From Nitrospinales bacterium (GTDB lineage: Bacteria > Nitrospinota > Nitrospinia > Nitrospinales > JAJDAT01): a stretch of DNA of 64,000 nt. Below are positions 684 to 40,098 of this stretch, piece after piece (position 1 is the stretch's first letter; each line of letters starts with the position of its first letter). The notes beneath the pieces are model-generated. The model searched no databases and was not told where the DNA came from. It saw only the letters and a program-made list of their open reading frames with translations. The DNA lies in contig JBHHYO010000001.1 in the NCBI GenBank assembly GCA_046757665.1, positions 26,822-90,821 of the forward strand. The letters run 5' to 3'. Made by a program: the position numbers and the translations under genes.

Positions 684-2243
684 TTGAATGTCATGAATAT
701 ACAAGTACTCGATCGCGAAAAAAACAGCCTGACTTTTGCGGAAACCAACACGAACAAGCCTCTGGATATTCTTCTGATTTATCCGGGAACGAAAACCGAC
801 TTCCCGCGAACCCCTTTCAGTATCATGACTCTGGCCTCATGGATTAGAAAACATGGGTACAGTGTCAAGCTTATGGACGAAAGGGTGGAGGAGATCGACT
901 GGGATTTGATTGGCGCCGCGAAGTTGATAGGAATCAGCTCAATGACGGGCCCGCAGTTGGCGGCGGCAGTTCCTTTGGCCAGGACAATAAAGGCCCGAGA
1001 GCCGGATACACCTCTTATCTGGGGCGGGCCCCATGTCTCTTTTTTTCCCGAGCAATCATGTCAATCCGATGTCGTTGACTACGTTGTTGAAGCGGAGGGA
1101 GAACCGGTTATTATTGAGCTGATGAAAAAACTTCTTGCGGGAGAGGAACCCAAAAATGTTGCGGGAGTTACCTATAAAAATCAGCAAGGGGAAATTATTT
1201 CATACCCGAAACCGCCGCAAATAGACCTGGATCTTTTGGATTTGCCTGCCTATGACATGATCGACATGAAAAAATATAATGATCTCTCGAACGGCTTGAG
1301 CTATGAGTCCAGCAGAGGATGCCCCTACCCATGCAGGTTTTGCTATGTATATACGTTTCATGACCGCAAATTTCGCGGAAAATCTCCGCAAAAAGTGCTC
1401 GATGAAGTCAAATACTTGAAAAATAAATATGGAATAAAGAAGATTTATTTTACGGAAGATTATTTGTGGACTCAAAAGAAAAGAGCGCTGGAGCAGTTTC
1501 AATTATTTATCGACAATGATTTGAATATTACCTGGGAAGGGTTTTGCCGAGCCGATTTTCTTTCAAAGGTATCGGATGAAGAAATGGAAATTATCGCAAA
1601 GAGCGGCGCGGAAATTCTAACCCTTGGTTTGGAATCCGGGTCGGAAAGAATGCTAAAACATATTCAGAAGCATATCACCCTGGATCAGGCCAAGGCGGCC
1701 ATCAAAAAATGCGTCAAACACAACATCATGACCACAAGCTCCTTCATTATTGGAATGCCCACGGAAACCGACGAGGATCTCGAAGATACTATTCGAATGT
1801 ACAATACCCTTACCAGTTACTCTGACAATATAGAAATTAACGGGTTTTTCCTTTATGCGCCTTATCCCGGCGTTCCGTTATATGACGAAGCCCTGGGAAA
1901 TGGCTACAAGAAAATGAACTCTCTGGAGGAATGGTGCCAATGGAATTACAGTGATGCTTCCAACAACGTCTGGATAGAAAAAAAACGTCTGCACCGCTTG
2001 CAAACCCTGAGCATTTTGGTGCGCTTCAAGTATTTACTGCATCGGTTCAAATATTATTCCCAAAAATCGCCTCGGTATAAAGAAAAGAAACTGAACCGCC
2101 TGTCTTTGAGAATAGCTTTTAACCTTCTTGTTCCCTTCATAAGCCGGATTGCCGATTTTCGCTGGAAGCACCGGCTGTTTTCATGGGGGTATGAATGGAG
2201 GCTCTGGAGATGGTTTGTTGCCAAACGGTTTAATATCAACTAA
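684..2243 (+). CDS. B12-binding-domain radical SAM protein (class B type)
   Basis: 519 aa. The N-terminal Rossmann-like domain (LLIYPG...LIGISSMTGP...IWGGPH) is followed by SSRGCPYPCRFC (CX3CX2C). The start is TTG 684 or ATG 693. Confidence 0.85.
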   Translation: MNVMNIQVLDREKNSLTFAETNTNKPLDILLIYPGTKTDFPRTPFSIMTLASWIRKHGYSVKLMDERVEEIDWDLIGAAKLIGISSMTGPQLAAAVPLARTIKAREPDTPLIWGGPHVSFFPEQSCQSDVVDYVVEAEGEPVIIELMKKLLAGEEPKNVAGVTYKNQQGEIISYPKPPQIDLDLLDLPAYDMIDMKKYNDLSNGLSYESSRGCPYPCRFCYVYTFHDRKFRGKSPQKVLDEVKYLKNKYGIKKIYFTEDYLWTQKKRALEQFQLFIDNDLNITWEGFCRADFLSKVSDEEMEIIAKSGAEILTLGLESGSERMLKHIQKHITLDQAKAAIKKCVKHNIMTTSSFIIGMPTETDEDLEDTIRMYNTLTSYSDNIEINGFFLYAPYPGVPLYDEALGNGYKKMNSLEEWCQWNYSDASNNVWIEKKRLHRLQTLSILVRFKYLLHRFKYYSQKSPRYKEKKLNRLSLRIAFNLLVPFISRIADFRWKHRLFSWGYEWRLWRWFVAKRFNIN

Positions 2244-3249
2244 AGTTATTTCTCAAACTCGTCAATCCAAAAAAGTTTCAAGCCTAGTGAACCTTCCGTT
2301 CGAGCCCATTCAAAAACCCTGCATTTTTATTACCTCGGGAGGCCGGACAGGCACTTTTTTCCTTTCAAAATTACTGGCGGTCGCCGTTCATGACTGCCAT
2401 TCCGTTCAAGAACCCGATGTCCTTCGCGTGGATCAACCACTAATCAGTTTCAACGATAGGGAAAACTGGTATCAAAAAGCCCGGGATTTTGGTTTTTTCA
2501 GTATGGTTTTTGGAAAGTTTACTACCCTGGGCAGTGCCAGAGGGTTGTCTCTGGCCCGGCAAACAAATAAAATCGATGCCGTCTCTGCCGCCGCCAGGCT
2601 CCACCATCTTCGAAACCGTTACATTTGCCGGCTGGAAAAGTCCGTCTTTGCCGAATGTAATTTACAACTGGCAGGTTTGATTGATATTATTCCACTGGTT
2701 TTTCCAAACTCAAAAACGGTCTTCATGATTCGTGATGGGCGTAACTGGGTTCGTTCCTGGCTCAACCTGTCCAACACCCCTTATGGCAAAAAGGATCCCC
2801 TTTATTACCTTCTTTCCGGCCGCCCCAAGGCTCAAATGATTCCCGATGATCCTTTTCGCAACCAATGGGAAAGATTTTCGCAATTTCAGCGGACCTGTTG
2901 GGCGTGGCGTTTCCACATCGAGTACGCGATAAAGTCGATCAAAGCAAATCCTCATGCAAAACTCGTAAAATATGAGGACCTGTTCGAGGGCGCTCACCAA
3001 AAGGAATCCATAAACAATTTGTTAAAATATGTAACGGTTTTCCCAGATGGCTATCAAGCGGAATATCGATACAATGGAGAACTGTCAGGAAAAAAATTCC
3101 ACGAATCCAGGCTCAACCAGCTTCCAAAGTGGGAAAACTGGTCCCCGGACCAGGTTAGGGAATTCCAGGAAGTTTGTGGCGATTTTTTGATTCAGCAAGG
3201 CTATGGGAAAGAACCTCAATGGCAGGAAATGACGGCCAAGGCTACATAG
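2191..3249 (+). CDS. Sulfotransferase-like protein
   Basis: This is ORF 2149..3249. Its 5' end overlaps the preceding gene, so I placed the start at ATG 2191; GTG 2290 is also possible. IFITSGGRTGTFFL resembles the PAPS 5'-phosphosulfate-binding loop, and VFMIRDGRNWVRS resembles the 3'-phosphate-binding R-x7-S motif. It sits in an operon context with PAPS-synthesis genes. Confidence 0.55.
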   Translation: MNGGSGDGLLPNGLISTKVISQTRQSKKVSSLVNLPFEPIQKPCIFITSGGRTGTFFLSKLLAVAVHDCHSVQEPDVLRVDQPLISFNDRENWYQKARDFGFFSMVFGKFTTLGSARGLSLARQTNKIDAVSAAARLHHLRNRYICRLEKSVFAECNLQLAGLIDIIPLVFPNSKTVFMIRDGRNWVRSWLNLSNTPYGKKDPLYYLLSGRPKAQMIPDDPFRNQWERFSQFQRTCWAWRFHIEYAIKSIKANPHAKLVKYEDLFEGAHQKESINNLLKYVTVFPDGYQAEYRYNGELSGKKFHESRLNQLPKWENWSPDQVREFQEVCGDFLIQQGYGKEPQWQEMTAKAT

Positions 3250-3282: not shown

Positions 3283-3861
3283 GTGAGCAATTATCTTTCC
3301 ATGAAATTCCGGTATAATGAATGGCTCAGGGAATTTTTTTATCTGTTCAAGCCGTTCTTTGACGATAACATCAATGCCTCTTACACGCTTTTCAATCTTT
3401 TTCTTTTGATCCCTTTTTTGAGAATTTGGATTTTTCGCCTTAAAGTCAGCCGCACGGGGAAAAACTTGAAATTGAAATATCCCGTTTATGTGCAAAACGG
3501 CAGAAATATTTCATTAGGAGACAACGCCACCTTCGGTAGCGGTTGCCATATCCAGGCGGGTAGGAAAAGCGTCATCAAAATAGGAAACAACCTGACTTGC
3601 GGACCGGGGGCTATGATTTTTGCGGCAAGCCATGGCTCCAGGAAAGGCGAATTGATCAAGTACCAGGATTTGGTGGAAAAAGATATTGTCATGGGAGACG
3701 ATGTGTTTTTGGGGGCGGGTTCGGTGGTTTTGGAAGGCACCACCCTGGCCGACGGCACCCTTGTGGGAGCGAACTCCGTTGTGGGCCCCAATTTCAAAAA
3801 CGAGCCTTTTGAAATTCTTCAGGGCGTTCCCGCAAAACTTAAGAGAAAGAGAAAGGCCTGA
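3283..3861 (+). CDS. Hexapeptide-repeat (left-handed beta-helix) O-acetyltransferase
   Basis: It shows hexapeptide periodicity (GDDVFLGAGSVVLEGTTLADGTLVGANSVV). The architecture is WcaF/maltose-acetyltransferase-like, with a hydrophobic N-terminal segment. Confidence 0.8.
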   Translation: MSNYLSMKFRYNEWLREFFYLFKPFFDDNINASYTLFNLFLLIPFLRIWIFRLKVSRTGKNLKLKYPVYVQNGRNISLGDNATFGSGCHIQAGRKSVIKIGNNLTCGPGAMIFAASHGSRKGELIKYQDLVEKDIVMGDDVFLGAGSVVLEGTTLADGTLVGANSVVGPNFKNEPFEILQGVPAKLKRKRKA

Positions 3862-3963: not shown

Positions 3964-4509
3964 ATGCAAAAAAAAGCGATTGTATTGTGGTTCACGGGGA
4001 TGTCGGGGGCGGGCAAATCGACCATTGCCGAACTGGCGGCTGAACGATTAAAATCCGAAGGGTTTAAAGCATCCGTCATAGACGGCGATCAGGTTCGCAA
4101 AAATCTTCATAAGCACCTTTCGTTTTCCAGGGAAGATATTCTGGAAAATAATCGGTTGATCGCCCAATTATGCGCGCAACATCTTTCAGGTTTTGATGTT
4201 ATTCTGGTCCCCATCATATCTCCCTACGCTCTGGGCAGGCGACGGGCGCGGGAAATCATCGGCGATACCTTTTTCGAAGTTTACATCAAAGCCTCGTTGG
4301 AGGAGCTTATCAAGAGAGATACAAAAGGTCTGTATCAAAAAAGTATGGAAGGAAAAATGGACGACTTAATCGGGTTTTCTCCGAAAAGCCCCTATGAAGA
4401 ACCCCAGTCCCCCGACCTCTCAATCAATACCGATCGGGAAAATCCTCAAAACAATGTCGAAAAATTGATGGAATCCGTGCGCCGGTGGATGAAGCGCCCC
4501 ACACACTGA
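3964..4509 (+). CDS. cysC: Adenylyl-sulfate (APS) kinase
   Basis: It has the Walker A motif WFTGMSGAGKSTIA, is 181 aa long, and the remainder is collinear with CysC (LDGDxVR-like VIDGDQVRKNL). Confidence 0.92.
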   Translation: MQKKAIVLWFTGMSGAGKSTIAELAAERLKSEGFKASVIDGDQVRKNLHKHLSFSREDILENNRLIAQLCAQHLSGFDVILVPIISPYALGRRRAREIIGDTFFEVYIKASLEELIKRDTKGLYQKSMEGKMDDLIGFSPKSPYEEPQSPDLSINTDRENPQNNVEKLMESVRRWMKRPTH

Positions 4510-4577: not shown

Positions 4578-6761
4578 ATGAGCAAAGAAATTCTGTGCAC
4601 CCTGGGGCCGGCCTCATTGAAGAAAACCGTATTGCAACGGATGAACGATCTGCCGGTCACCTTGTTTCGAATTAACCTTTCCCACACCTCGCTCGACGAC
4701 CTCAGCGAAAATATCCGGCTGATTCAAAGCATAAGCGACAAGCCCCTCTGTATCGACACCGAGGGGCCTCAGATAAGGACGGGGAAGGTGGCCGAGGGGC
4801 GGGTCTTGCTCCAGGAGGGGAGCTTTTTAACGATTCATCGAGAAAGCGTCCCGGGGAATGCCCAGGAAGTAGCTTTCTATCCCGCGGTAGCCATCGACCA
4901 GATTCAACGGTTCGATTTCATTTCCATAGACACGCACGGTGTCATGGTCCAGGTTGTAGAAAAGAAAGACGGTCGGTTGCGCGCAAAAGTAATCACGGAG
5001 GGTTTTATAGGGAGCAACAAAGCCGTTACGGTGGCGAACCGTTCGGTGATTTTGAATTCGCTGACGCAAAAAGATGAAAAAGCCATCCAAATCGCCGGTC
5101 ATTTCGGTATCAGGCATTTCGCCCTCTCATTTGCGAGTCGCCGGGAAGATGTCCTTGAATTGCGGCGGTTGACGGGGAAAAACAGCACGCTCATTGCAAA
5201 AATAGAGAACCGCTCCGGCGTCGATCATGTCGAATCCATCGCCAGGGAATCCGACGCCATTCTCATCGACAGGGGGGACCTCTCCCGCGAGGAACCCATC
5301 GAGGCCATTCCGCTTCTTCAAAAACACATCATCCAGGCGGCAAAAAAAGTGGGGACAAAGGTTTACGTGGCGACCAACCTTCTGGAATCCATGGTAACCC
5401 AGGCAAAACCCACCCGCGCCGAGGTAAACGATGTCTTCAACACTTTAATTGACGGTGCGGATGGCCTTGTCCTGGCGGCGGAGACCGCTATTGGAAGTAA
5501 TCCCGTGGGATGCGTGAACATGATTTCCAAGCTGATTCACCAGTATGACAATTACTCCAAATTCGGCATTCAAACGATCAAATATGACAAACGGTCTCTG
5601 TTGATTGAACCTCACGGAGGTTCCCTGATTAACCGGTTTTTAGAAAATCCCGATATCGATGAAATCGGCAGGCTTCCCTGTTTGACGGTGGACGAAAAAA
5701 TCGTTTTGGATTGTGAACAGATCGCCTTTGGCGTGTATTCTCCTTTACAGGGTTTTATGAACCGGGAGGAGGTTGAAAATGTTTTGGATCATTATCATCT
5801 GCCCAGCGGCGATGTCTGGACTTTACCCATCGTTTTTCAAATTCCAAAAGAACGGGCGGCAAAACTTAAGCCGGGCGACACGGTGGCCCTGTTTAACGAA
5901 ACTTTGAACGAGCGGTTTGCCCTTCTGCACCTGGAAGAAATATTTTCGCTGGATTTGGATTCCCTCGCCAAGCGGATGTTCGGCACGGATTCATCCGACC
6001 ATCCGGGAGTGGATCAGGTAAAAAATGCGGGGAATACGTTTCTCGGCGGCAAAATCGACTTGATCAAGGTCCCGGAAAAACCGTCTCAAACGACGCCTTA
6101 CATTTTAAGGCCGGCGGATACACGCATGATTTTTGAACAAAAAAACTGGTTTCGGATCGTTGGTTTCCACACCCGGAACGTCATCCACCGGGGGCATGAA
6201 TTTATTCAAATGAAAGCCCTCAACGATCACTATTGCGACGGTTTGTTTATCAGCCCCGTTATCGGCCCCAAGAAGAAAAACGACTTCCAAAGCGAAGTCG
6301 TGCTCCACGCTTATCAGACCATGGTGGATTGCAATCTGTATCCCAAAAACAAAGTTCTGATAGGCGCCTTCCTGACTTATCCGCGCTATGCCGGCCCTCG
6401 GGAAGCGGTGTTTACGGCCCTTTGTCGAAAAAATTTCGGATGTTCTCATTTTATCATTGGGCGTGACCATGCCGGCGTCAAAGACTTTTATCATGCTACG
6501 GCATCCGCTCGTTTCTTCGATGATCTGGGAGATATCGGCATCGAACCGGTTTTTTTCGATGAGGTTGTCTATTGCCGCCAATGCAAGACGCATCGGTTGT
6601 CTTGCAACCATTCGGAGACGGATGTCCAGCGCATCAGTGGTTCCCAGGTCAGGCAAACCTTTTGTGAAGGCAAGAGCTTTCCCTCCTGGTTGTTGCGTGA
6701 GGAAATATCGGAGATTTTGAGCAAGGCAAGGAAGACCGGCAAACAAATCTTTGTAACGTAA
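4578..6761 (+). CDS. sat: Fusion protein: pyruvate-kinase-like barrel domain (aa 1 to about 330) + ATP sulfurylase (sulfate adenylyltransferase, aa about 340-727)
   Basis: PK motifs are all present: ILCTLGPAS, FRINLSHTS, DTEGPQIRTG, IAKIENRSG, DRGDLSRE, KPTRAEVNDV and AAETAIGSNP. The sulfurylase part has LIEPHGGSL, SPLQGFM, HTRNVIHRGHE (a variant of QTRNPxHRxH) and IGRDHAG. Confidence 0.85.
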   Translation: MSKEILCTLGPASLKKTVLQRMNDLPVTLFRINLSHTSLDDLSENIRLIQSISDKPLCIDTEGPQIRTGKVAEGRVLLQEGSFLTIHRESVPGNAQEVAFYPAVAIDQIQRFDFISIDTHGVMVQVVEKKDGRLRAKVITEGFIGSNKAVTVANRSVILNSLTQKDEKAIQIAGHFGIRHFALSFASRREDVLELRRLTGKNSTLIAKIENRSGVDHVESIARESDAILIDRGDLSREEPIEAIPLLQKHIIQAAKKVGTKVYVATNLLESMVTQAKPTRAEVNDVFNTLIDGADGLVLAAETAIGSNPVGCVNMISKLIHQYDNYSKFGIQTIKYDKRSLLIEPHGGSLINRFLENPDIDEIGRLPCLTVDEKIVLDCEQIAFGVYSPLQGFMNREEVENVLDHYHLPSGDVWTLPIVFQIPKERAAKLKPGDTVALFNETLNERFALLHLEEIFSLDLDSLAKRMFGTDSSDHPGVDQVKNAGNTFLGGKIDLIKVPEKPSQTTPYILRPADTRMIFEQKNWFRIVGFHTRNVIHRGHEFIQMKALNDHYCDGLFISPVIGPKKKNDFQSEVVLHAYQTMVDCNLYPKNKVLIGAFLTYPRYAGPREAVFTALCRKNFGCSHFIIGRDHAGVKDFYHATASARFFDDLGDIGIEPVFFDEVVYCRQCKTHRLSCNHSETDVQRISGSQVRQTFCEGKSFPSWLLREEISEILSKARKTGKQIFVT

Positions 6762-6762: not shown

Positions 6763-8772
6763 ATGATCGTCCCCGGCTTGTTTCTCACGGTTGTCATTGG
6801 TTATTTGCTGGTGGTTTCGTTAAATCCCTCCTCAGGCGCCGGTGAGCGTCTCAGCCTGTCGGCGCCTTTCGGCCTGGGGTGTACCACCCTGGTTATTTGG
6901 GTTCTGCTTGCGCTTCACCTTCCCCTTTCGCCAACCTCGCTGATGACTGCCCAGATGTCCCTTGCCGCCGGCCTGCTGTACCTCGCCTGCCGAACGAAAA
7001 CCATAGCTCTGTCATCGAGCCGTCCGGTCTTTCCCAAGGTTAATGCGGGTTTGATTCTCATTCTCTTGCTGGTGGGAGCCGGACTGGTGTTCAATATTTT
7101 TTTTCCTATAACCGTGTCCGACGGCATTGGCTATAAAATCCATGGGATCGTTGCGGTGGACAAAAAAAATCTCATGGCTTTTGAGGACGTCTTGCATATT
7201 GGCGACCAAAACAGAACGCTGGGGTTTCAATTAATCTCGGGATTTTTTTATTTGTTTGATTTTGATTACCCCAAGCTGGTCCAGTCCGTATTCTACGCAA
7301 GTATGTTGGGATTCTTTTATGTCTCGATTCGCAAATTCATGGACTCCGGCCCGGCGAGGGGTATGACCCTGCTATTGGCGACCGCTCCCATGGTTTGGTG
7401 GCAATCCTTTTTGTATCTGAACAATCTTTCGTCGGGGGTTTATTTTTTGTGCGGAACTTTATACTGGTTTTTCGCCATTCATTACAAACAACCGCGCTAC
7501 ATGTTGATTGCATCGTTTGCATTCATGCTTGCCGCCTGGACGAGGTATGAACTCATCGTAATGTATATGATCCCGCTGGCGTTCACCTTTTTCCTGTCCG
7601 CAAAAAACAGGCAGGCCAGGCCTGCTTTATTGCTTTTGATTTTTCCCCTGATTTTTTCGGGCGCATGGGCCGCCCATAGTTTCGCTTACTACCCTGAAAT
7701 GAAGCGCTCCGCCCACTATTTTTATATTTTTTTATTTCTGCTTTCGAGCGGCATTATTTTCGGCGTTATTCATGCGTTGCAGATCAGGCTTCGGCTCGTT
7801 ATGGGAGCCATAGTTGCCGTTATCGCGTCAGCCGCCGTCTTCGTGATTTTTAATGAGCTTTTTCAGGATAAAATTGTGCTGTTGCAACGTGTGCTACTGG
7901 CCAAACTTCTCAACAATACGATGGTTCAGTGCGTTTGGGGGTTGGGGATTTTGCTGGTATTGCTTGTTCCCGTCTATTACAGAGGGTTTCAGCCGGCCCA
8001 AAAATACCTGTTGTTCAATTTAATTTCTTTATTCATGGGCTTCACCCTTCTCTTTTCGTTAGTTACCATGGGACACCCCATGCTGGACGAACCCGTCGTT
8101 GAAAGAATAAAGTTCTTCCTCGAGTTTCCGGGCAGGATTGCGGTGAGAACGTCCAGCCGGGAGTTTTTTATATTATTTCCTTCCCTGCTGTTCATGTTGG
8201 GGACGACGATTTATCAGAGCAATCTGACCTCAAAAGTTGCCCTGTCTTTTAAAAAGTCCTTGTTCAAAAACAGTTTGTTTAGCGGTCTCAATTGTTTGGT
8301 CGTGGGGAATTTGCTTCTGATCTCCGTAGTTTTTCTGATTCCAAGGGCCGTTTTTATGAAAAACCATTTTGGAGAATCTCATTCCGAGTTGGAGAGAACC
8401 GGCGGCCCAAGAGATATTCCCAACCTTTATCAGCCAACATACATTATTGCTCATGCCGTTTCCCGGCATACTCCAGAGGACTCCGTTGTTCTTTTCCCCT
8501 TTCCCTATGGAGCGCTGACCTTTAAAAAAGAGCCCTATAATTCTCTTGGTTTGTTTGCCGGCGCTGACGCCCTGTATCCCCGGGTCCTGTTTTGGGGAAA
8601 AGCGGAGCTTGACAAAATCAGGAAATCATTTCCAAATAAGCGAATTTACCGAGTGACCTATCCGGGCTGGTTGGACAATCAATGCAAAAACCATCCCGAT
8701 GGAAAATCCCTGGAGTACCATGAATGGTATCTTTGCCCCATTGACGGGCGCAATCTACGCCCTGAGGGATAA
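6763..8772 (+). CDS. Large polytopic membrane protein of unknown family (possible GT-C-type transferase/polymerase) with a C-terminal soluble domain
   Basis: 669 aa with more than 12 hydrophobic segments. The ATG lies 1 nt after the sat stop (TAAT ATG), which indicates operon membership. I recognised no diagnostic motif. Confidence 0.65.
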   Translation: MIVPGLFLTVVIGYLLVVSLNPSSGAGERLSLSAPFGLGCTTLVIWVLLALHLPLSPTSLMTAQMSLAAGLLYLACRTKTIALSSSRPVFPKVNAGLILILLLVGAGLVFNIFFPITVSDGIGYKIHGIVAVDKKNLMAFEDVLHIGDQNRTLGFQLISGFFYLFDFDYPKLVQSVFYASMLGFFYVSIRKFMDSGPARGMTLLLATAPMVWWQSFLYLNNLSSGVYFLCGTLYWFFAIHYKQPRYMLIASFAFMLAAWTRYELIVMYMIPLAFTFFLSAKNRQARPALLLLIFPLIFSGAWAAHSFAYYPEMKRSAHYFYIFLFLLSSGIIFGVIHALQIRLRLVMGAIVAVIASAAVFVIFNELFQDKIVLLQRVLLAKLLNNTMVQCVWGLGILLVLLVPVYYRGFQPAQKYLLFNLISLFMGFTLLFSLVTMGHPMLDEPVVERIKFFLEFPGRIAVRTSSREFFILFPSLLFMLGTTIYQSNLTSKVALSFKKSLFKNSLFSGLNCLVVGNLLLISVVFLIPRAVFMKNHFGESHSELERTGGPRDIPNLYQPTYIIAHAVSRHTPEDSVVLFPFPYGALTFKKEPYNSLGLFAGADALYPRVLFWGKAELDKIRKSFPNKRIYRVTYPGWLDNQCKNHPDGKSLEYHEWYLCPIDGRNLRPEG

Positions 8773-11195: not shown

Positions 11196-12365
11196 ATGAA
11201 TTTAGCCGCACCCACAAAACCCAAGAAAGAAGCCTCCCCCACCGCAACCCTGTCCAAGAACGGCGGTCAAGGCCCGGTCAGGGAGATGATCAAGGGTTGG
11301 ATCAAAAAACTGCCGTTTTTTCTGGAAGCGGATTATTATCGGCGCAAAATTTATGATTCCCCTCTGTTCGATTTTTCCGTGAAACCCTTGGCCGACACCC
11401 TCGCCGAGTGGCCGCGGGCGTTGGTTCTTGACATCACCAACCGATGTAATGCCAAGTGCTCGTGGTGCCCGCAACCGCAACTGGAGGATGTCGGCGCCAT
11501 GAAAATGCCTTTGTACCGAAAAATCATCGACGACTACGCCGTCCGCGGCGGGGTGGTTCATTTCGGTACCTTTGGCGAACCGCTGATGGACAAAACGTTC
11601 GCGGAAAAAGTCCGCTATTTGAAAAACTATCCTTCCATACAAAAGGTCGAGATGGTCACCAACGCCTTTTTCCTGAATGAAAAAATCGTTCCGACGCTGA
11701 TCGAAAACAAAGTGAATGTCGAGATCAGTCTGGACGAGCTGGAAAAGGAGACTTTCGAAGAAATCAAGAAAATGAGTTACGATGTTGTGCGCGCCAACAT
11801 TCTTGAATTTTTGAAGCTCAACGACCGGTCCGCGGAACCGGTCAACGTCAACTTCCGCGTCAAATCATCCCTTTCCAGGCAACACACGATGGCCCATGAA
11901 CTGTTCCGCGAACTTGCTTCACATCGTTGCACCATCGAACTCACCCCCATTGACGAGGACAGCATCACCACCTGGGCGGGCCGGTTCGACAAAATGGCGT
12001 TTTATGAAGATCACATGAAAAACACCGCCATCGTAAAAGATCACAACCCCAAGGAGTTCAACAAAACCAACACCGCGCCCTGCAACCAATTGTGGAAATG
12101 GATGGTGGTATACTGGGACGGGAGCGTGGTGCTTTGTTGCGTCGATATGTTTTCCTCCACCATTCTGGGAAACCTGAACGACAACACGATCGAGGAAATA
12201 TGGACGGGGCCCGTGCTCACGCAACTGCGACAAAAAATGATCCAAAGGAAACGCTTTGAAATCCCCATTTGCCAGGACTGCGACCTCCACCTGAGTTGGC
12301 GCTATTTAAAGACCTGCTACAAGCCCGACGGCAGTTTGTCCCATCACTTAAACTTCATCAGTTAA
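11196..12365 (+). CDS. Radical SAM protein with C-terminal SPASM/twitch-like Cys-rich domain
   Basis: It has LDITNRCNAKCSWCPQ (CX3CX2C). The C-terminal region reads CNQLWKWMVVYWDGSVVLCCVD...PICQDCD. Confidence 0.85.
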   Translation: MNLAAPTKPKKEASPTATLSKNGGQGPVREMIKGWIKKLPFFLEADYYRRKIYDSPLFDFSVKPLADTLAEWPRALVLDITNRCNAKCSWCPQPQLEDVGAMKMPLYRKIIDDYAVRGGVVHFGTFGEPLMDKTFAEKVRYLKNYPSIQKVEMVTNAFFLNEKIVPTLIENKVNVEISLDELEKETFEEIKKMSYDVVRANILEFLKLNDRSAEPVNVNFRVKSSLSRQHTMAHELFRELASHRCTIELTPIDEDSITTWAGRFDKMAFYEDHMKNTAIVKDHNPKEFNKTNTAPCNQLWKWMVVYWDGSVVLCCVDMFSSTILGNLNDNTIEEIWTGPVLTQLRQKMIQRKRFEIPICQDCDLHLSWRYLKTCYKPDGSLSHHLNFIS

Positions 12366-18029: not shown

Positions 18030-20213
18030 ATGTCCCTCATGGATTTTCAGTCACTCCCATGCCTTGCGATCGTCATCCTGATTGCCGTTTTATCTCGTCT
18101 GCCGTTCCTGCGCTTTCCCATGGACGAGGACATGGCCACCTTCACCTACCGCGCCCGGTTTGCCGCCAGGGGGTTTGAATGGAAACGGGACCTGTTCGTT
18201 TTTTATCCGACTTGCCGGATGCGCCTGTTCGACGCATTGTACGGTCGCCCCGGGGGGGGCGTCTTGCGGATCCGCCTTTTTTTCATGGCGGCTCATATCG
18301 TCACTTCCCTGGCGGTTTATTCGGCCATATTCTTTCTGACGGGAAACCCTTTCGCGGCACTGTTTGGTGGAGCGAGCTATGCGTTTTTCGCCACGGCGCC
18401 CGCGCTGTGCGCGGTTTCGTTCAATTTTGAGCCGTTGTATTTGCCGCTTCTCTTGATCGGCTTGCAACTGCTTTGGCGGGACATGATTCCCCTGGCCGGA
18501 ATCTGTTTCGGACTGGCCGTCGTGCTCAAGGTTTCCACGGGGATTTATGTTCCGGTGATGATGCTGTTTGTCGCCCGTCAATACGGGTACGGAGACTCTC
18601 TGCTTTTCATGGTCGCGGCGGCGGCTCCCGGCCTGATCTCGCACGCGCTGGACTGGAGCATGGGCTATCTGGACCAGGAAGCGAAAAAACAATTCAACCT
18701 GCGCCTGGCCGCCACCCTGCGGTGCGCCAAATTGAAACGGATGTATGGAAGCATTTCACAAGACATCCGGTTGACCGTTAAACAGACCCTGCCCCTGTGG
18801 CTTGCCGGCATCCCCGGCCTGGTGATCGCTTCGACGGAAGCGCCTGGCCTTTCCATTTCCCTGTTCGCCGTGCCGACGATAGTCATGATCCTTTGCCAGC
18901 GCGGGTTTTCCCGGTATCATTACATTCCTTTTATTGGTCTCCTGGCTCTCGGAGCGGGTCCGGCGGTCGATCGGCTTTGGCGGATGCCGGAACCCGTTGC
19001 TTTTGCCGCCGCGGCCTTGCTTGTGGCGGCGACTGTCTGGACGCTCTATCGTCTGGCTCCTTTTTATCTTCGTCCCCTGGAGGCCGAAACCCTGGCGCGA
19101 TACGACAAGTTCGACCAGTTCATTTACCTGCCGTACCTGGGGAAAATCCTCAAACGCCTTGTCCGCATCCGCAAGGAAACGGATCGCCGGCTTTTTGTTT
19201 GGGGAAACTTTATTCAGCTTTATCATGAAACCGGACTCCCCGCCGCCGACCGCTTCGCGCATTACTGCATCGGCCCCTGGGACAGCCCGGTTCTTGAAGA
19301 ATATTTCGATACCGTCATCGGCGGACTGATGCGCCACCAGCCGGTTTACCTGGTCAAGGCCTTTCCCGACCTGGACATGGAGTTGCTGGAGCGAGTCACG
19401 GGTCTGCGGTACCGGCTGATCAAGGTGGCATTGGCGCGGTTTCCGATTTATCGGCTGGCGGGTTTCACGCCGCCCGCCGGCGATCCTCTTGATCTGCCGT
19501 GGCGCGAGAAAATGCGCCTGTTCGATGCGCTGACGCAGGGCGAACACGTTCCCGGTATCGACAAGACGGCGGCCGCCGGATTGAGCAAGACCCTGAACGA
19601 ATGCCGAAAGCTGTGCCGGTTGAATCCGCATGACACACAAGGCATGTGGTTTCTCGCGGAATTGCAGGACCGGCTTGGGCAAGCGGACGCGGCCGCATCC
19701 ACTTGCGAAAAACTGTTGCACGAAAACCCGTCGGACCCACGGCTTCTGCTACTGCTGGCAAAACAAAAGGTAAAGCAAAACCGGCCGGACGAAACGCGGC
19801 GCGCCCGGGAAATCTATAACGATATATGGAAACGGCCGATGCGCCCGCATGAGGACGGGCTTCGCACCCAGGCCGCGGTGGCCGTCGCCGAACTCGACTC
19901 CGGGCGGCGTCCCGAAGCGGAGACGCTGGAACGGTTTCTCGCCCGCGACCCGCGCAACGAATCGTTGGCTTACGCGCGCGCCTCGGCCCTGGAGCGCCGG
20001 GGCAATCGCGAGCAGGCGCGCCGTCTGTTCGAACAATTTACCGCCACCTTTACCAAACCCCCGCTTCAGGCGGCGGCGTGGTTCCGCCTGGCCCGCCTGT
20101 CGCCGCCGGAGCAACGCGAACAAATACTCAAGCAATGCCTGAAGCTCGATCCCGCGCATTCCGGCGCGCAAAAACTCCTGCAAGCTCTGGAGACTTGCCG
20201 TGTCGAAGCGTAA
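18030..20213 (+). CDS. GT-C-like (ArnT/PMT-type) polytopic membrane protein with C-terminal TPR-like domain
   Basis: The N-terminal roughly 330 aa is multi-TM, with an acidic first-loop motif FPMDEDMATF. The C-terminal roughly 250 aa is helical and TPR-like (WFLAELQDRLGQADAAASTCEKLLHENPSDPR...). Confidence 0.72.
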   Translation: MSLMDFQSLPCLAIVILIAVLSRLPFLRFPMDEDMATFTYRARFAARGFEWKRDLFVFYPTCRMRLFDALYGRPGGGVLRIRLFFMAAHIVTSLAVYSAIFFLTGNPFAALFGGASYAFFATAPALCAVSFNFEPLYLPLLLIGLQLLWRDMIPLAGICFGLAVVLKVSTGIYVPVMMLFVARQYGYGDSLLFMVAAAAPGLISHALDWSMGYLDQEAKKQFNLRLAATLRCAKLKRMYGSISQDIRLTVKQTLPLWLAGIPGLVIASTEAPGLSISLFAVPTIVMILCQRGFSRYHYIPFIGLLALGAGPAVDRLWRMPEPVAFAAAALLVAATVWTLYRLAPFYLRPLEAETLARYDKFDQFIYLPYLGKILKRLVRIRKETDRRLFVWGNFIQLYHETGLPAADRFAHYCIGPWDSPVLEEYFDTVIGGLMRHQPVYLVKAFPDLDMELLERVTGLRYRLIKVALARFPIYRLAGFTPPAGDPLDLPWREKMRLFDALTQGEHVPGIDKTAAAGLSKTLNECRKLCRLNPHDTQGMWFLAELQDRLGQADAAASTCEKLLHENPSDPRLLLLLAKQKVKQNRPDETRRAREIYNDIWKRPMRPHEDGLRTQAAVAVAELDSGRRPEAETLERFLARDPRNESLAYARASALERRGNREQARRLFEQFTATFTKPPLQAAAWFRLARLSPPEQREQILKQCLKLDPAHSGAQKLLQALETCRVEA

Positions 20214-22472: not shown

Positions 22473-25367
22473 GTGAAAATTCTTGTCTGCAATCCGCCCG
22501 GCCGATTTCCCGGAAACCGGTACGTCTGCCCCTTTCCCAGCCGATGGACCAGCATGTTCAAGGGGTATCCGGTTTTCATTTATTACCCTTACGAGTTGGC
22601 CTACCTGTCCGCCCTCCTGAAAAGAGAGTTGCCCGGCGACCAGGTGAAGATGGTGGACGGCGCCTGGCTACGGTTTACCGCCGACGATTACATTCGCTTC
22701 CTGAAACACGAAAAACCCGACTGGGTGGTGTTTGAGGTGGATACCGTCACCTACGGCGAAACGCGCAAAATAGCCGACCGCATCAAATCGGACCTGGGAA
22801 CCCGGGTTATCATGACCGGCCAATACCCGACGGCGTTTCCCGAAAAAGTGGCGGCGGACGGTTATCGCTATGTCTGCATCGGCGAGTTCGAAGCCACCGT
22901 CCTGGACGTGTTGAGGGGGAATGACCCGAAATCCATCGAGGGGCTCCACCCGAACTCCTATCGCAAGGTTCTCGATCTTGACTGGCTTCCGGACCCCGAG
23001 GACGAGGATATCCGCCGCATCGACTACAGTTATTCCGGCGGGCACCGCTGGACGCGCTACCGGGAAATCGAGGTTCACCCGTCGCGCGGGTGCCCTTACA
23101 CGTGCGATTTTTGCGTAGCCGGCACCGTTTACTACGAAAACATCAACTGGCGTTTTCGCAAGCCGGAACGGATCGTCAATGAGATCGAAACCCTGCGCCG
23201 CAAATATCCGCAAATGGAAGGCTGTTTCTTCAACGAAGAAACCCACATCATCAGGAAAAAAAACATTCTGGAATTTTGCGATGCCCTCATCGCCTCCGGC
23301 AACAACGACCTGCATTTCGAGGCCATGGCCAACCACCAGCGGCTGGACGAGGAAATTCTCGAAGCCTTGAAGCGGGCCGGTTACTATAAACTGCGCATCG
23401 GCATCGAAAGCGTGGACGAAGCCACCGGGCAAAGCATCGGCCTGGTCAAGACCCGTCCCGACCGCCTGGAAAAGGTTTTGAAAATCGCCGCCAAGCTGGG
23501 GATCGAAATGTACGGCACCTTTCTCTTCGGGGCATCCGGTTCCACCCGGGAGGGCGACCGCAAAACCATCGAGTTCGGACGCAGAGTTATCTCAAAGGGG
23601 TTGTTGACCAGTTGGCAGGCATCCATTGCCGTCCCCCACCCGGCAACGCCGTTTTACCGAAAAGCCGTCGAAAACGACTGGCTGGTGACCGACAGCCTGG
23701 ACCGCTTCAACGGCATCAGCGACACCGTGGTCAGCTATCCCGATTACCCGCGAGAGCAAATCCTGGAAACGGTGAAGGAGATGGGACGGGAGTTTGAAGC
23801 CGCGCGGTCTTTCGATACCGTTCGCAGGCATAAATCCGTCGCCCAGGAAAAAACCGCTATCCTCAAAAAAGACGAGGCCGTCGTTAATCGAAAACTGGAC
23901 GCCCTGGCTCCGTTGTTCCAAAGCGGCGAAAACGAAAAAACCCTGGAAGCCGCAAGAGCCATCCTCAAGACTTTTCCGCAAGCCCTGACGGCCCGCCACG
24001 CGATCGGCTCCGTTTACAAGCGAATGGGGGATTTGGCCGCGGCCCGGCGGGAGTTCGAGTTCATTGTCGCCACCGCCTTCGATTATGAGGATGCGTTGCA
24101 GTATGCCGCCGGCGCGCATTTTCATCTCGGCGTTATCGGCCTGGCGGAAAATAAAATCGAGGAGGCTCGCCGGCATCTTAAAAACTGTATGCACCTGAAC
24201 CCGGACCACGAGGAAGCCCGGCGGCACTATTGGATGTTGACGGAAACCGGCGGCCGGTGGCTGAGCCTCGAGCGCGCACTGCTCGCCTGGAAGCCGGAAG
24301 AGAAATGCCATTCCGCCATGATGGCGCTGTTCTCCCTTTGCGCGCCGTTGTTTCGGCTTTGGCTTAGACCCCCGCCAGCGGTAGCGCCCGCTCGCAAGAG
24401 GACACCGCTGGAGTTTAAAGTCCTGCACGAGCCCGCCTCCCGCGGCACGCCCGATGTCTCTGTCGTTATCCGCGCCTGCAACGAGGCCGAGTTGCTTGCC
24501 CAAACCCTGGATGCCGTTACGGAGCAGAAGGGAATCGAAAAAGAAATCATTGTGATCGACTCGCAATCCACGGACGCCACGGTGGACATTGCGCGTTCCT
24601 TTTCGGCGCGGGTTGTTGAAATCGAAAAAAGCGGCTTCAACTATGCGGCGGCGCTGAACCTGGGTGTCCGCCTGGCGCGTGGGAAATATGTCGTCAACCT
24701 GAGCGCCCATGCCGTGCCGGTGGACACGCGATGGCTGGCGAACCTGATTCAACCCCTGGCCGAGGACCCCGAAACGGCGGGAGTGCATGGCCGCGAGTTG
24801 CCCATGAGGAACCGGTGCGGCGTATTTGAATGGAAAATCCTTGCCGATTCGTTTCCGGACCGCCGGCTCGAGAAAAAGAACGATTTCTTTTTTTCCAATG
24901 CCAACTCCGCCATGCGCCGGGAGACGCTTGTGGCTTATCCCTTTGACGAATCCGTCGGCTGGGCGGAGGACCAGTTGTGGGCGGACCGGGTGCAGAAAGC
25001 CGGATACAAAACCGTTTACCAACCGGGCGCGGCGGTCTTTCATTCCCACAACCTGACGGCCAAACAGAACTTCGAGCGGTGCTTGAAATATTATCAAACA
25101 CTGTTCGCCACCGTTTACCGCGACCGGGCTGTCGAGGTGCGCGGCGCGTTTCGCGCCTCGCTCGCGGCGCGCGCGGTGTCACTGCGCCGGTTTCTGGTCG
25201 AGCGGCGGTTGATGCGGCCGCTTCCGGCGTTCTTTTACGCGCCGTTTTGCGAATACGTCAATTACCTGGGTTGCGAGATTTCCTGCGCCGCCCGAACCGC
25301 CCCGGAAAAAATTTCCGGTATCCGGGAAAACCGTGTCCGGCAACCTCAAAATCAGGCTGTATCGTGA
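22473..25367 (+). CDS. Tri-domain fusion: B12-type radical SAM + TPR-like linker + family 2 glycosyltransferase
   Basis: 964 aa in one uninterrupted frame. It contains HPSRGCPYTCDFC (CX3CX2C), then TPR-like KRMGDLAAARREFEFIV...AENKIEEARRHLKNCMHLNPDHEEA, then the GT2 segment VSVVIRACNE...IIVIDSQSTDATV from about nt 24453. Confidence 0.85.
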   Translation: MKILVCNPPGRFPGNRYVCPFPSRWTSMFKGYPVFIYYPYELAYLSALLKRELPGDQVKMVDGAWLRFTADDYIRFLKHEKPDWVVFEVDTVTYGETRKIADRIKSDLGTRVIMTGQYPTAFPEKVAADGYRYVCIGEFEATVLDVLRGNDPKSIEGLHPNSYRKVLDLDWLPDPEDEDIRRIDYSYSGGHRWTRYREIEVHPSRGCPYTCDFCVAGTVYYENINWRFRKPERIVNEIETLRRKYPQMEGCFFNEETHIIRKKNILEFCDALIASGNNDLHFEAMANHQRLDEEILEALKRAGYYKLRIGIESVDEATGQSIGLVKTRPDRLEKVLKIAAKLGIEMYGTFLFGASGSTREGDRKTIEFGRRVISKGLLTSWQASIAVPHPATPFYRKAVENDWLVTDSLDRFNGISDTVVSYPDYPREQILETVKEMGREFEAARSFDTVRRHKSVAQEKTAILKKDEAVVNRKLDALAPLFQSGENEKTLEAARAILKTFPQALTARHAIGSVYKRMGDLAAARREFEFIVATAFDYEDALQYAAGAHFHLGVIGLAENKIEEARRHLKNCMHLNPDHEEARRHYWMLTETGGRWLSLERALLAWKPEEKCHSAMMALFSLCAPLFRLWLRPPPAVAPARKRTPLEFKVLHEPASRGTPDVSVVIRACNEAELLAQTLDAVTEQKGIEKEIIVIDSQSTDATVDIARSFSARVVEIEKSGFNYAAALNLGVRLARGKYVVNLSAHAVPVDTRWLANLIQPLAEDPETAGVHGRELPMRNRCGVFEWKILADSFPDRRLEKKNDFFFSNANSAMRRETLVAYPFDESVGWAEDQLWADRVQKAGYKTVYQPGAAVFHSHNLTAKQNFERCLKYYQTLFATVYRDRAVEVRGAFRASLAARAVSLRRFLVERRLMRPLPAFFYAPFCEYVNYLGCEISCAARTAPEKISGIRENRVRQPQNQAVS

Positions 25368-26329: not shown

Positions 26330-26391
26330 AGGGCTCGGATTCCGTTCAGGAAGAGAAAACCCTTGCGTTTCCTGGTAGCCGAAATAATATC

Positions 26392-35677: not shown

Positions 35678-36685
35678 GTGGGAAACATCTATTATGACCG
35701 AGACGCCGATTTAAAATACCTGGAAGGCAAAACCGTCGCCGTCATCGGTTACGGTAGCCAGGGTCATGCTCATGCCCGGAATTTATATGACAGCGGCGTC
35801 AAGTCCCTGGTCGGCTTGCGAAGGGAGAGCGCCTTTTGGGACTGCGTCGTTAAGGACGGCCTGGAGGTCTTGACCGTCGCCGAGGCTTCCAAAAAAGCCG
35901 ATATCATCATGATTCTGGTCCCGGACGACAAGCAACGCGACGTTTATTTAAAAGACATCCGGCCGCACCTCGAAAAGGGAAACGCCCTGGCTTTTGGACA
36001 TGGATTCAACATCCATTTCGGCCAGGTGGTTCCCCCGGACAATGTCGACGTTTTCATGGTTGCGCCCAAGGGTCCCGGACACTTGGTGCGCCGCACCTAT
36101 GAGTCGGGCGCCGGCGTGCCCTGCCTGCTGGCCGTCGAGCAGGACGTATCGGGGACTTGCCAGCAAGTCGCTCTCGCTTACGCGAAAGCCATCGGCGGAA
36201 CCCGCGCCGGTGTCCTGGAAACCAGCTTCCGGGAAGAAACGGAAACCGATCTCTTCGGTGAACAAGCTGTGCTGTGCGGAGGGCTGACCGAGTTGATCCG
36301 CGCGGCTTTCGACACGTTGGTCGAGGCCGGATACAATCCCGACCTGGCTTACTTTGAATGCCTCCACGAGGTTAAACTCATCGTGGACCTGATTTACGAG
36401 GGCGGCATCGACAATATGCGTTACTCCATCAGCACCACCGCGGCTTACGGAGATGTTACCCGCGGGCCGAGAATTATCACCCAGGAAACCCGCAAGGCGA
36501 TGAAGGGGATCCTGCGGGAAATCCAGAACGGCAGTTTTGCCCGGGAATTCATTCTCGAAAACCAGGCCAACCGGCCGGTTTTCAATGCCCGGTTGAAAGA
36601 AGATTCTCAGCACATGATCGAAGATGTCGGCGAACGGTTGCGCAAAATGATGCCTTTTGTCGGTTCGAAAATTAACAAACCGTGA
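35678..36685 (+). CDS. ilvC: Ketol-acid reductoisomerase
   Basis: The start is GTG, preceded by the AGGAG RBS. Motif: [20 protein letters not shown]. 335 aa (class I). Confidence 0.95.
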
Positions 36686-40014: not shown

Positions 40015-40098
40015 GGTTTGTTCTCTGCTTTGTTGGGTTTTTAAAAAAAATCTTTTCCGGTTCAGGGAGGATTCGACGGCCTTCCCGCGGAAGTTCAC

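Follow-up and report, generated by a model that had tools for sequence, protein, structure and literature searches.

A pyruvate kinase barrel fused to ATP sulfurylase in a Nitrospinales surface-sugar gene cluster, and its possible role in PEP-powered PAPS supply

A single gene of a Nitrospinales bacterium was found to encode both a pyruvate kinase (PK) barrel and a complete ATP sulfurylase (ATPS), and it is set in a surface-sugar (sugar-coat) gene cluster directly after the APS kinase gene cysC. From sequence comparison with its relatives, we consider it fairly likely that this two-enzyme protein and the adjacent CysC form a PEP-powered PAPS factory for glycan sulfation, in which the PK domain would convert the ADP that CysC produces to ATP again. 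The PK-ATP sulfurylase fusion is apparently unstudied, and relatives of it are found in more than ten phyla.

Domain architecture and gene neighbourhood

The fusion gene, its domains and its neighbours are placed as follows in the window, i.e., the whole stretch of 64,000 nucleotides that was analysed.

684..2243, + strand: B12-binding radical-SAM enzyme belonging to this gene string (PF04055 and PF02310)
2149..3249, + strand: sulfotransferase gene upstream of the fusion (Sulfotransfer_3, 28.2 bits, cut-off 27; weak Sulfotransfer_1 match)
3283..3861, + strand: hexapeptide-repeat acyltransferase, also of this gene string (PF00132)
3964..4509, + strand: cysC, APS kinase, 181 aa (PF01583, 147 bits)
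4578..6761, + strand: fusion gene of PK without its C domain and ATP sulfurylase, ATG start, 727 aa (PF00224, PF14306 and PF01747)
4578..5567, + strand: pyruvate kinase A (TIM barrel) and B (lid) domains, aa 1-330 (PF00224, TIGR01064, Foldseek)
4785..5072, + strand: PK lid (B domain), about aa 70-165
5568..5600, + strand: variable, disordered interdomain linker of about 11 residues, aa 331-341 (low pLDDT, 22% identity)
5604..6068, + strand: PUA-like N-terminal domain of the ATP sulfurylase, aa 343-497 (PF14306, 138 bits)
6099..6725, + strand: catalytic domain of the ATP sulfurylase, aa 508-716 (PF01747, 236 bits), bearing FHTRNVIHRGHE, GPREA and GRDHAG
6763..8772, + strand: 669-aa protein beginning 1 nt past the fusion stop, weakly PMT_2-like (E = 0.0076, below the Pfam cut-off)

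The architecture of a PK A and B barrel without a C domain, followed by a linker and a complete Sat-type ATP sulfurylase, was confirmed by profile searches and by a structural model. The Pfam PK barrel profile matched aa 4-312 with 212 bits and was covered from position 5 to 327 of 328. Against TIGR01064, the NCBIfam PK equivalog, the PK part scored 260.6 bits over aa 4-328, which is below the cut-off of 306.4, as would be expected because the PK C domain is missing. Indeed, Pfam gave no match to PK_C (PF02887) in the fusion protein, the PK match stopping at about aa 330 and the PUA_2 match beginning at aa 343, so the absence of the allosteric C-terminal domain reported in the original prediction stands. 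The sulfurylase part reached 388.7 bits against NF003166 (cut-off 387) and fell just short of the TIGR00339 equivalog-domain cut-off (313 bits, cut-off 322.95). A PDB sequence search matched aa 342-714 to the ATP sulfurylase 8a8d (E = 8e-88) and aa 4-332 to the pyruvate kinase 7oo1 (E = 2e-52), and the sulfurylase catalytic domain was aligned to 8a8d and 1v47.

The AlphaFold model of the fusion has a mean pLDDT of 88 and falls below 50 only at residues 330-340, for which reason the linker was marked there. When compared to the PDB using Foldseek, the C-terminal half matched 8a8d with a target-relative TM of 0.92 and an rmsd of 2.2 Å, and the N-terminal half matched the A and B domains of PykF, PKM1 and PKM2 over about 337 columns with an rmsd of 2.4-2.7 Å. 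Together with the PUA_2 and ATP-sulfurylase profile matches, this bears out the earlier claim of a complete ATP sulfurylase from about aa 340. All of the motifs quoted in the original prediction were located in the chain, namely FRINLSHTS (aa 30-38), DTEGPQIR (aa 60-67), IAKIENRSG (aa 206-214), RGDL (aa 232-235), PTRAE (aa 278-282) and ETAIG (aa 302-306) in the PK part, and HTRNVIHRGHE (aa 531-541) and GRDHAG (aa 628-633) in the sulfurylase. The latter retains RN, H537, H540, GPREA and GRDHAG, with the first motif residue being His rather than Gln (FHTRN). This form, FH(T/S)RN in place of FQTRN, is a clade-wide feature: of the 120 listed fusions, 113 carry it and 7 went unmatched in the motif search, and the sulfate-site His is also found in the nearest stand-alone Sat proteins. 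An identical protein is deposited at NCBI as "MAG: sulfate adenylyltransferase [Nitrospinales bacterium]".

As originally described, the fusion starts 68 nt after the end of cysC, whose product scored 166 bits against TIGR00455 (cut-off 138.7). The APS kinase domain (PF01583) is absent from the window fusion chain per Pfam and is supplied by this separate upstream gene. The sulfotransferase encoded at 2149..3249 is the likely consumer of PAPS. A radical-SAM neighbour of the B12-binding type also lies beside a triple fusion, at locus L094. The PMT_2-like protein that follows the fusion, i.e., one resembling a membrane glycosyltransferase, belongs to a neighbour cluster (cluster 37) seen at 5 loci including the window. 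No CysD (PAPS_reduct-like) or CysN (GTP_EFTU) domains were detected in the fusion or in the window ORFs scanned, and a scan of the rest of the window found no canonical pyk, ppa (pyrophosphatase), cysQ or sulfate permease. A second ORF of 727 aa in the window (18030..20213) was considered as a duplicate of the fusion and rejected, as it encodes an unrelated TPR protein.

Spread, loci and alternative domain arrangements

Relatives of the fusion occur in 575 or more species-level genomes and, when clustered at 50% identity, give about 65 full-length clusters. Finished chromosomes and cultured strains also have this continuous ORF, with Mesorhizobium, Sinorhizobium/Ensifer and Methyloversatilis among the cultured carriers. 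Additionally, a plasmid collection yielded the fusion on megaplasmids of Ensifer adhaerens and Sinorhizobium chiapasense, where no features are annotated. Automated annotations of these proteins conflict, some reading "pyruvate kinase" and others "sulfate adenylyltransferase". Our literature search, which included a Nitrospinota comparative-genomics paper, found no characterisation of a PK-ATP sulfurylase fusion; matches pairing "pyruvate kinase" with "sulfurylase" were PK/LDH coupled assays. The original prediction, which likewise knew of no characterised example, had allowed that the architecture might turn out to be that of a common, already characterised family. Common it is, but a characterisation was not found.

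The typical setting of the fusion genes is a surface-glycan or nonulosonic-acid locus. Neighbourhoods were counted at the 58 loci with adequate flanks. An adjacent cysC was present at 26 of these and absent at 32, a sulfotransferase-like gene was present at 24, and one or the other at 41. The sulfotransferase count lends comparative support to the earlier suggestion that the fusion may help supply PAPS to a neighbouring sulfotransferase. Recurrent neighbours were NeuB, CMP-cytidylyltransferase, DegT aminotransferase, NDP-sugar dehydratase, GT4 glycosyltransferase and Wzy. We considered a link to the use of PEP by NeuB, which occurs at 14 of the 58 loci, and set it aside because it leaves the fusions to ATPS and to APS kinase unexplained.

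Several further arrangements of the same domains were found. PK, PUA_2, ATPS and APS kinase occur in one chain in P0142, P0155 and P0156, and the same PK subfamily is joined directly to APS kinase, with no ATPS, in P0235 and P0270 (the latter being NCBI MBI3252145.1). In P0172, a PK that includes PK_C is fused to ATPS and is followed by an APS kinase gene, while P0191 has the reversed order, ATPS-PK. CysD- and CysN-like genes lie alongside the reversed fusion (locus L093). Through such recurrent and apparently independent fusions with ATPS and with APS kinase, this PK subfamily is linked to the making of PAPS.

Active-site residues and readings of the PK domain

PK residues were surveyed in 119 fusion relatives from many phyla with about 48% overall identity (PKM2 numbering is used below). 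R73, N75, S77, H78, D113, R120, K270, E272, R294, G295, D296, T328 and E364 are invariant in 119/119, K207 is Lys in 116 and Arg in 3, and T114 is Thr in 101 and Ser in 17. In the window protein, the equivalents of the PK catalytic residues are R31, N33, S35, D60, T61, R67, K148, K208, E210, D234 and T266. Among these, R31, K208, E210, D234 and T266 correspond to the catalytic and metal residues R73, K270, E272, D296 and T328; N33, S35, D60 and T61 to the monovalent-cation ligands N75, S77, D113 and T114; and R67 and K148 to the nucleotide-phosphate binders R120 and K207, which we take to contact the ADP phosphates in canonical PK. The original prediction had named loss of the PK catalytic residues as grounds for regarding the domain as a pseudo-enzyme; the alignment instead shows the core retained across the relatives, save for the few substitutions at K207 and T114. 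Mean pairwise identity is 59-62% for the PK A domain, 58% for the ATPS catalytic domain and 22% for the linker (aa 321-342); by this measure the PK A domain is conserved as well as the sulfurylase catalytic domain.

The statement that essentially every PK active-site motif is kept was nevertheless slightly overstated, since several canonical residues are replaced family-wide even though the quoted motifs are present. These departures are K115E, E118Q, N210T/S, A293D, G298S, Q329N, S362A, G363A and K367I/V, and the canonical LSGETAKG reads LAAETAIG in the window protein. Both A362 and Ile or Val at 367 are found in 119/119 relatives, and D293 with I/V367 is also present in PK+C-ATPS and ATPS-PK, although these forms are built separately. 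The monovalent-cation signature (T113/E114/Q117/T120 in rabbit numbering) departs from the patterns of both K+-dependent and K+-independent PKs. S362 and K367 are presumably located at the ribose/adenosine site in PK-nucleotide structures, and their replacement would mean that ADP is perhaps not the acceptor, or is bound differently. The literature yielded no usable account of what S361 and K366 do in the PK structure.

In the mechanism that we favour, the C-terminal Sat-type ATP sulfurylase would convert ATP and sulfate to APS and PPi, CysC would convert APS to PAPS with release of ADP, and the N-terminal PK barrel, which is probably unregulated since it lacks the allosteric C domain, would move the phosphate of PEP onto this ADP to yield ATP. 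The net reaction would be ATP + sulfate + PEP -> PAPS + PPi + pyruvate. In this way, ADP would be removed and ADP/APS inhibition relieved, the local ATP/ADP ratio would be kept high, and the large free energy of PEP would add pull on the very unfavourable sulfurylase step, a role comparable to that of GTP hydrolysis by CysN or of a fused pyrophosphatase. We infer that ADP is the acceptor of the predicted PK activity, that the fused enzymes are coupled kinetically or by proximity, and that the end product is a sulfated glycan. ATP regeneration from the ADP of CysC had been put forward in the original prediction, and the residues, operon context and fusions described above argue for it. Known enzymology is in line with such a role: APS kinase enters a dead-end complex with ADP and APS, and ATPS binds ADP almost like APS (PMC3734648), while PAPSS1 yields almost no PAPS without ATP regeneration by PK and PEP and much more with it, PK and PEP serving in vitro to remove ADP and being required for good PAPS yield from PAPS synthase (PMC9885120). 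Counting against the ATP-regeneration model are the fixed S362A, G363A and K367I/V at canonically conserved PK positions, the low PK activity that K367M leaves in recombinant PKM2, the odd cation signature, the loci with no adjacent cysC, and the lack of a pyrophosphatase or cysQ in the window scan; strictly, a diffusible ADP also needs no fusion.

The same replacements raise the question of whether an active PK domain might serve another phosphoryl acceptor, for example another NDP or a compound related to the sulfonucleotides, such as APS or PAP, and might even replace APS kinase where cysC is absent. The family-fixed N210T/S, S362A, G363A, K367I/V and A293D would surround the presumed nucleotide/ribose pocket, two of them (D293 and I/V367) are common even to the PK+C-ATPS and ATPS-PK forms, more than half of the loci have no adjacent cysC, and the recombinant K367M mutant of PKM2 shows little of the canonical PK activity (PMC6586363). 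We nevertheless consider this reading unlikely, given the invariance of R120 and near-invariance of K207, the good fit of NDP acceptors to PK chemistry, and the fusion of a bona fide APS kinase domain to PK. This last arrangement and the adjacent cysC at 26 loci make the PK domain an unlikely substitute for APS kinase, and we rejected its replacing CysC as the main explanation, since many loci, the window included, have cysC next to the PK gene or joined to it. It seems very doubtful that the C-domain-less PK subfamily marked by E115/Q118/D293/N329/A362/I367 is no ADP kinase at all and instead acts as a PEP-dependent phosphotransferase on a compound of the sulfonucleotide pathway; such an enzyme could make or recycle a 3'-phosphorylated adenine nucleotide or, in cysC-less loci, phosphorylate APS directly.

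Loss of the canonical S362 and K367 could also be read as a sign that the barrel has no catalytic activity and serves for regulation or as a scaffold, sensing PEP, ADP or energy state or driving oligomerisation. There is precedent for this in the fungal ATP sulfurylase of Penicillium, which carries a degenerate, APS-kinase-like allosteric domain, and the PK C domain, the usual seat of allosteric regulation, is absent here. Pseudo-enzymes normally lose their catalytic and metal residues, however, whereas K270, E272, D296, T328, R73 and R120 are invariant across phyla despite an overall identity of about 48%; the mobile lid domain is kept as well, and PK-APS kinase fusions without ATPS do not fit a role as ATPS regulator. 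A non-catalytic barrel is thus highly unlikely in our estimation. As for a housekeeping PK joined by chance with no functional coupling, or an artefact of assembly or gene calling, the disagreement between automated names might be taken to hint at it, but this reading retains almost no probability and is effectively refuted by the spread of the continuous ORF, the number of clusters and the several fused arrangements of PK with sulfate-activation domains. The consistent setting in glycan and sulfation loci and the PK's own sequence signature also speak against it.

Known systems and significance

Canonical pyruvate kinase (EC 2.7.1.40; E. coli PykF, human PKM2) likewise has a TIM-barrel A domain into which a B lid is inserted, and shares the metal-, PEP- and phosphate-binding catalytic residues, at about 30% identity. 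It differs from the fusion PK in possessing a C-terminal allosteric/tetramerisation domain, in lacking the fixed replacements listed above, and in its glycolytic context, the fusion being tied to ATP sulfurylase in glycan loci. Sat-type ATP sulfurylases (Thermus thermophilus 1V47 and Methanothermococcus thermolithotrophicus 8A8D) share the PUA-like and catalytic domains and the RNxxHxxH, GPREA and GRDHAG motifs at 36-41% identity and a TM of 0.92-0.93, but have no N-terminal PK barrel and carry Gln rather than His at the sulfate site.

The logic of fusing a sulfurylase to an enzyme that pulls the pathway is that of the bifunctional PAPS synthases (metazoan PAPSS1/2, Aquifex SAT/APSK 2GKS), in which ATPS and APS kinase form one chain, as they do in P0142, P0155 and P0156, whereas the window APS kinase is a separate gene. 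The module added in the fusion is a predicted PEP-dependent ATP regenerator and, unlike that of PAPS synthases, not itself a pathway step. APS kinase-ATPS-pyrophosphatase fusions, which Patron et al. reportedly described in 2008 in some eukaryotes, would follow the same logic as the PK-ATPS fusion. The GTP-coupled CysDN sulfurylase may play a similar role, in that sulfate activation is coupled to the hydrolysis of a further high-energy compound, but it is not homologous to the fusion, whose coupling would be by mass action on ADP/ATP rather than conformational. The activities predicted from sequence for the fusion and CysC are those of the in vitro PAPS cascade of ATPS, APS kinase and PK/PEP, in which ATP regeneration is needed against ADP build-up and the dead-end complex (PMC9885120). 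Such cascades are man-made mixes of unrelated enzymes, while here the combination is natural and lies in one gene or operon.

APS formation, and with it sulfate activation, is among the most unfavourable steps of core metabolism, and to our knowledge the ways of pulling it are few: GTP hydrolysis by CysN, and removal of a product by pyrophosphatase or by a (fused) APS kinase. If our reading holds, a sulfurylase to which a PEP-driven regenerator of ATP is fused would be a further one, and in a milder wording PEP spent through the fused PK would be a third natural way to pay for sulfate activation; a PEP-dependent sulfonucleotide phosphotransferase, if that were true instead, would mean that sulfate can be activated by a new route driven by PEP. 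When heparin and chondroitin are sulfated with enzymes, PAPS supply and ADP/APS inhibition are limiting, and a single natural chain of ATPS, APS kinase and PK (e.g., P0142 or P0155) would be an attractive biocatalyst. We would like to note that the conflicting automated names can mislead when glycolysis or dissimilatory sulfur metabolism is reconstructed from MAGs. If the reading is true, the fusion would also mark a large, unexplored set of bacterial loci, probably making sulfated surface glycans, in nitrite oxidisers, Omnitrophota, planctomycetes, rhizobia and others.

Architecture and distribution of the fusion

The original prediction of a pyruvate kinase (PK) barrel fused to an ATP sulfurylase (ATPS) was confirmed by the ORF itself, Pfam, NCBIfam, PDB sequences, AlphaFold and Foldseek. 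The gene and its domains are as follows.

Window features of the PK-ATPS fusion
4578..6761, +, fusion ORF, ATG start, 727 aa
aa 4-312, PK barrel PF00224 (Pfam, 212 bits, profile positions 5-327 of 328)
aa 343-497, PUA_2 domain (Pfam)
aa 508-716, ATP-sulfurylase domain (Pfam)

As predicted, Pfam found no PK_C (allosteric C-terminal) domain in the 727 aa. With NCBIfam, the fusion scored 388.7 bits to NF003166 (sulfate adenylyltransferase; cut-off 387), while with TIGR01064 (PK equivalog) aa 4-328 reached 260.6 bits, short of the 306.4 that the model requires for a whole protein. Among PDB sequences, the C-terminal half retrieved the ATP sulfurylases 8A8D (E = 8e-88) and 1V47 (E = 5e-81), and the N-terminal half many pyruvate kinases (best E = 2e-52, the rest weaker). 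The AlphaFold model has a mean pLDDT of 88 with disorder confined to residues 330-340; by Foldseek, its C-terminal half superposes on ATP sulfurylase with a TM of 0.92 relative to the target (rmsd 2.2 A) and its N-terminal half on the PK A and B domains over about 337 columns (rmsd 2.4 A), and no solved chain was found spanning both halves. An identical protein is present at NCBI, from a Nitrospinales MAG.

The top 120 homologues all share the three-domain architecture (48-70% identity, 685-752 aa) and are variously named "pyruvate kinase", "sulfate adenylyltransferase" or "ATP sulfurylase" by their sources. With each species represented by a single genome, at least 575 genomes encode a relative, the best 80 of these matches all being full length, and an exhaustive HMMER search, with representatives clustered at 50% identity, yielded about 65 full-length fusion clusters. 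Relatives occur in, among others, Nitrospinota, Omnitrophota, Planctomycetota, Deltaproteobacteria/Syntrophales, Bdellovibrio-like predators, Elusimicrobia, Chloroflexota, Actinomycetota, Gemmatimonadota, Verrucomicrobia, Calditrichaceae, and Alpha-, Beta- and Gammaproteobacteria. The gene is also found in cultured bacteria, among them Mesorhizobium album, M. atlanticum, M. amorphae, Sinorhizobium saheli and Methyloversatilis universalis, and the fusion is megaplasmid-borne in Ensifer adhaerens and S. chiapasense. The original prediction had allowed that this might be a common, already characterised family: common it is, but known only by machine annotation, and no description was found in the freely accessible full-text literature. 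The fusion is real, widespread and apparently uncharacterised.

Conservation in the two halves

The PK half was compared across 119 fusions by alignment to E. coli PykF and human PKM2, and the PKM2 numbers of the key residues were confirmed to be correct. Invariant in all 119 are the PEP/phosphate binders R73 and R120, the monovalent-cation ligands N75, S77 and D113, H78, the catalytic K270, the Mg2+ ligands E272 and D296, and R294, G295, T328 and E364; K207 is kept in 116. Mean pairwise identity is 59-62% in the PK A domain, 58% in the sulfurylase catalytic domain and 22% in the linker. With the A domain and the sulfurylase catalytic domain about equally conserved and the linker far less so, the pattern fits a constrained catalyst rather than a decaying domain, and PK activity is predicted.

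Every motif cited originally was found in place, and the catalytic residues are retained; the claim of "essentially every" PK motif was mostly right but overstated, as the 119 fusions carry fixed departures from canonical PK (K115E, P117A, E118Q, G208A, N210T/S, A293D, G298S, Q329N, S362A, G363A and K367I/V). In PK, residues 114-118 (rabbit numbering) make up the hinge between the A and B domains and set K+ dependence, with E117 plus T113/K114/T120 marking K+-dependent enzymes and K117 plus L113/Q114/(L,I,V)120 marking K+-independent ones (PMC8835810). The fusion has T/E/Q/T at 113/114/117/120, matching neither pattern. Since rabbit K114Q has near wild-type kinetics (PMC8835810), the change at position 114 alone is not alarming. 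PKM2 K367M has little PK activity (PMC6586363), which makes the invariant Ile/Val at 367 a real caveat for the acceptor site. Because it lacks the C domain, S362, K367 and a score above the equivalog cut-off, the PK half is better filed as a distinct, C-domain-less PK subfamily than as "a pyruvate kinase".

On the sulfurylase side, RNxxHxxH, GPREA and GRDHAG are all preserved, and the sulfate-site Gln of FQTRN is replaced by His (FHTRN, aa 530-534, window 6165..6179). FH(T/S)RN was matched in 113 of 120 listed fusions (a motif search left the other 7 unmatched) and also occurs in the nearest stand-alone Sat proteins (~380 aa), whereas more distant relatives keep FQTRN; the substitution is a clade feature.

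Other domain arrangements and the proposed role of the PK half

The PK subfamily with the fusion's sequence signature recurs in several other arrangements; two further forms, P0172 and P0191, carry a different PK signature.

Domain arrangements other than the fusion's own (P, proteins; L, their loci)
PK-PUA_2-ATPS-APS kinase in one chain, 904-930 aa: P0142, P0155, P0156 (L094 8001-10757)
PK-APS kinase without sulfurylase, both in polysaccharide loci: P0235; P0270 = MBI3252145.1, Omnitrophota MAG (L088, L092)
PK-CBS, same subfamily signature
Stand-alone PK barrels, 326-376 aa, same subfamily signature
Type I phosphodiesterase-PK-ATPS: P0178
PK with PK C domain-ATPS, then an APS kinase gene: P0172, L091 1046-3625; K+-independent-type signature
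ATPS-PK, reversed order: P0191, L093 1916-4093; K+-independent-type signature

The reversed order implies that such a fusion arose independently at least once more, or that the parts were rearranged. Beside that gene, L093 5704-12093 encodes an ABC transporter (periplasmic binding protein, two permeases, ATPase), and the locus also has CysD-like (PAPS_reduct) and CysN-like (GTP_EFTU) genes; it may hold two different sulfate-activation systems.

ATP sulfurylase is strongly inhibited by its product APS, and ADP binds in the sulfurylase site in almost the same way as APS (PMC3734648). In a PAPSS1 cascade without PK/PEP regeneration, ADP accumulates and PAPS is "practically missing"; with it, ADP is removed and PAPS raised (PMC9885120). 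By analogy, we infer that the fused PK would do the same in vivo, returning ADP to ATP for PAPS synthesis, with the net reaction ATP + sulfate + PEP -> PAPS + PPi + pyruvate, so that the free energy of PEP would join the pull on the sulfurylase equilibrium. Lacking the allosteric C domain, the PK would be unregulated and dedicated to PAPS supply, and the canonical tetramer is probably impossible. Since APS kinase is the ADP producer, its direct fusion to PK is the strongest single argument for an ADP-to-ATP link.

The fixed changes at 210, 293, 362, 363 and 367 would also suit a PK half that phosphorylates something other than ADP, a reading we consider unlikely though worth keeping in mind. 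A non-catalytic, regulatory barrel is more improbable still, given the invariant catalytic residues and the existence of PK-APS kinase fusions, and an accidental or artefactual fusion is excluded for practical purposes by the wide distribution. Conceptually, the closest systems are PAPS synthases, ATPS-APS kinase-pyrophosphatase fusions and CysN coupling; unlike these, the present fusion of a Sat-type ATP sulfurylase with a PK-family barrel brings in a predicted ATP regenerator that is foreign to the pathway.

Gene neighbourhoods

Window genes preceding the fusion
2149..3249, sulfotransferase
3964..4509, cysC (APS kinase), ending 68 nt upstream of the fusion, as originally noted

Hexapeptide acyltransferase and B12-radical-SAM genes also precede the fusion, and the next gene starts 1 nt past its stop codon. 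The window holds a large glycan-modification cluster (GT2, GT1-TPR, PIG-L, FkbH-like and several radical-SAM genes). Radical-SAM genes are unusually dense there (684..2243, 11196..12365, 22473..25367, 26047..28476 and 28473..30560: three B12-binding, one SPASM and one 964-aa radical-SAM + TPR + GT2 fusion), resembling the B12-radical-SAM and GT2-radical-SAM genes flanking the triple fusion in L094. The triple fusion P0155 adjoins sulfotransferase, B12-radical-SAM and GT2-radical-SAM genes, much like the window. Directly after the fusion/cysC pair, the window (6763..8772, weak PMT_2 match) and Omnitrophota locus L001 (10714-14831) encode large proteins (~660-720 aa) for which Pfam gives a faint match or none, and which may be membrane glycosyl- or sulfo-transferases. 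The cluster ends near a ketol-acid reductoisomerase gene (Pfam; 35678..36685) and one for a chlorite-dismutase-like protein with an N-terminal PCP_red domain (39052..40152, -). The ORF at 18030..20213 (+) equals the fusion in length (727 aa) but encodes a TPR protein unrelated to it, and is not a paralogue. A 636-aa Sulfatase-family protein is encoded at 57461..59371 (+), in the same 64 kb as the fusion, and a sulfatase gene abuts the fusion in alphaproteobacterial loci L003 and L004. Brocadiaceae locus L005 (1-117) has, ~8 kb upstream of its PK-ATPS gene, a 752-aa fusion of AMP-binding and Inositol_P (CysQ-like PAP phosphatase family) domains, which may be another sulfonucleotide-handling fusion.

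To compare neighbourhoods, we clustered the ORFs of 86 loci, of which 85 were retrieved and one was the window's initial 20 kb, and named the cluster representatives by Pfam.

Neighbour clusters, loci of 86
APS kinase, 36
NDP-sugar dehydratase/epimerase, 27
DegT aminotransferase, 17
Short-chain dehydrogenase (SDR), 17
NeuB, 16
Sulfotransferases, two clusters, 15 and 7
CMP-type cytidylyltransferases, two clusters, 13 and 9

GT4 glycosyltransferases, ABC exporters, methyltransferases, UDP-GlcNAc 2-epimerase and Wzy-like proteins also recur. In 58 loci the fusion has 5 kb or more of sequence on each side; of these, 26 contain cysC, nearly always immediately next to the fusion, whether before or after it, a sulfotransferase can be recognised in 24, and 41 contain at least one of the two. 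From this gene context, the fusion genes are predicted to be dedicated to supplying PAPS for the sulfation of glycans rather than to serve sulfur assimilation.
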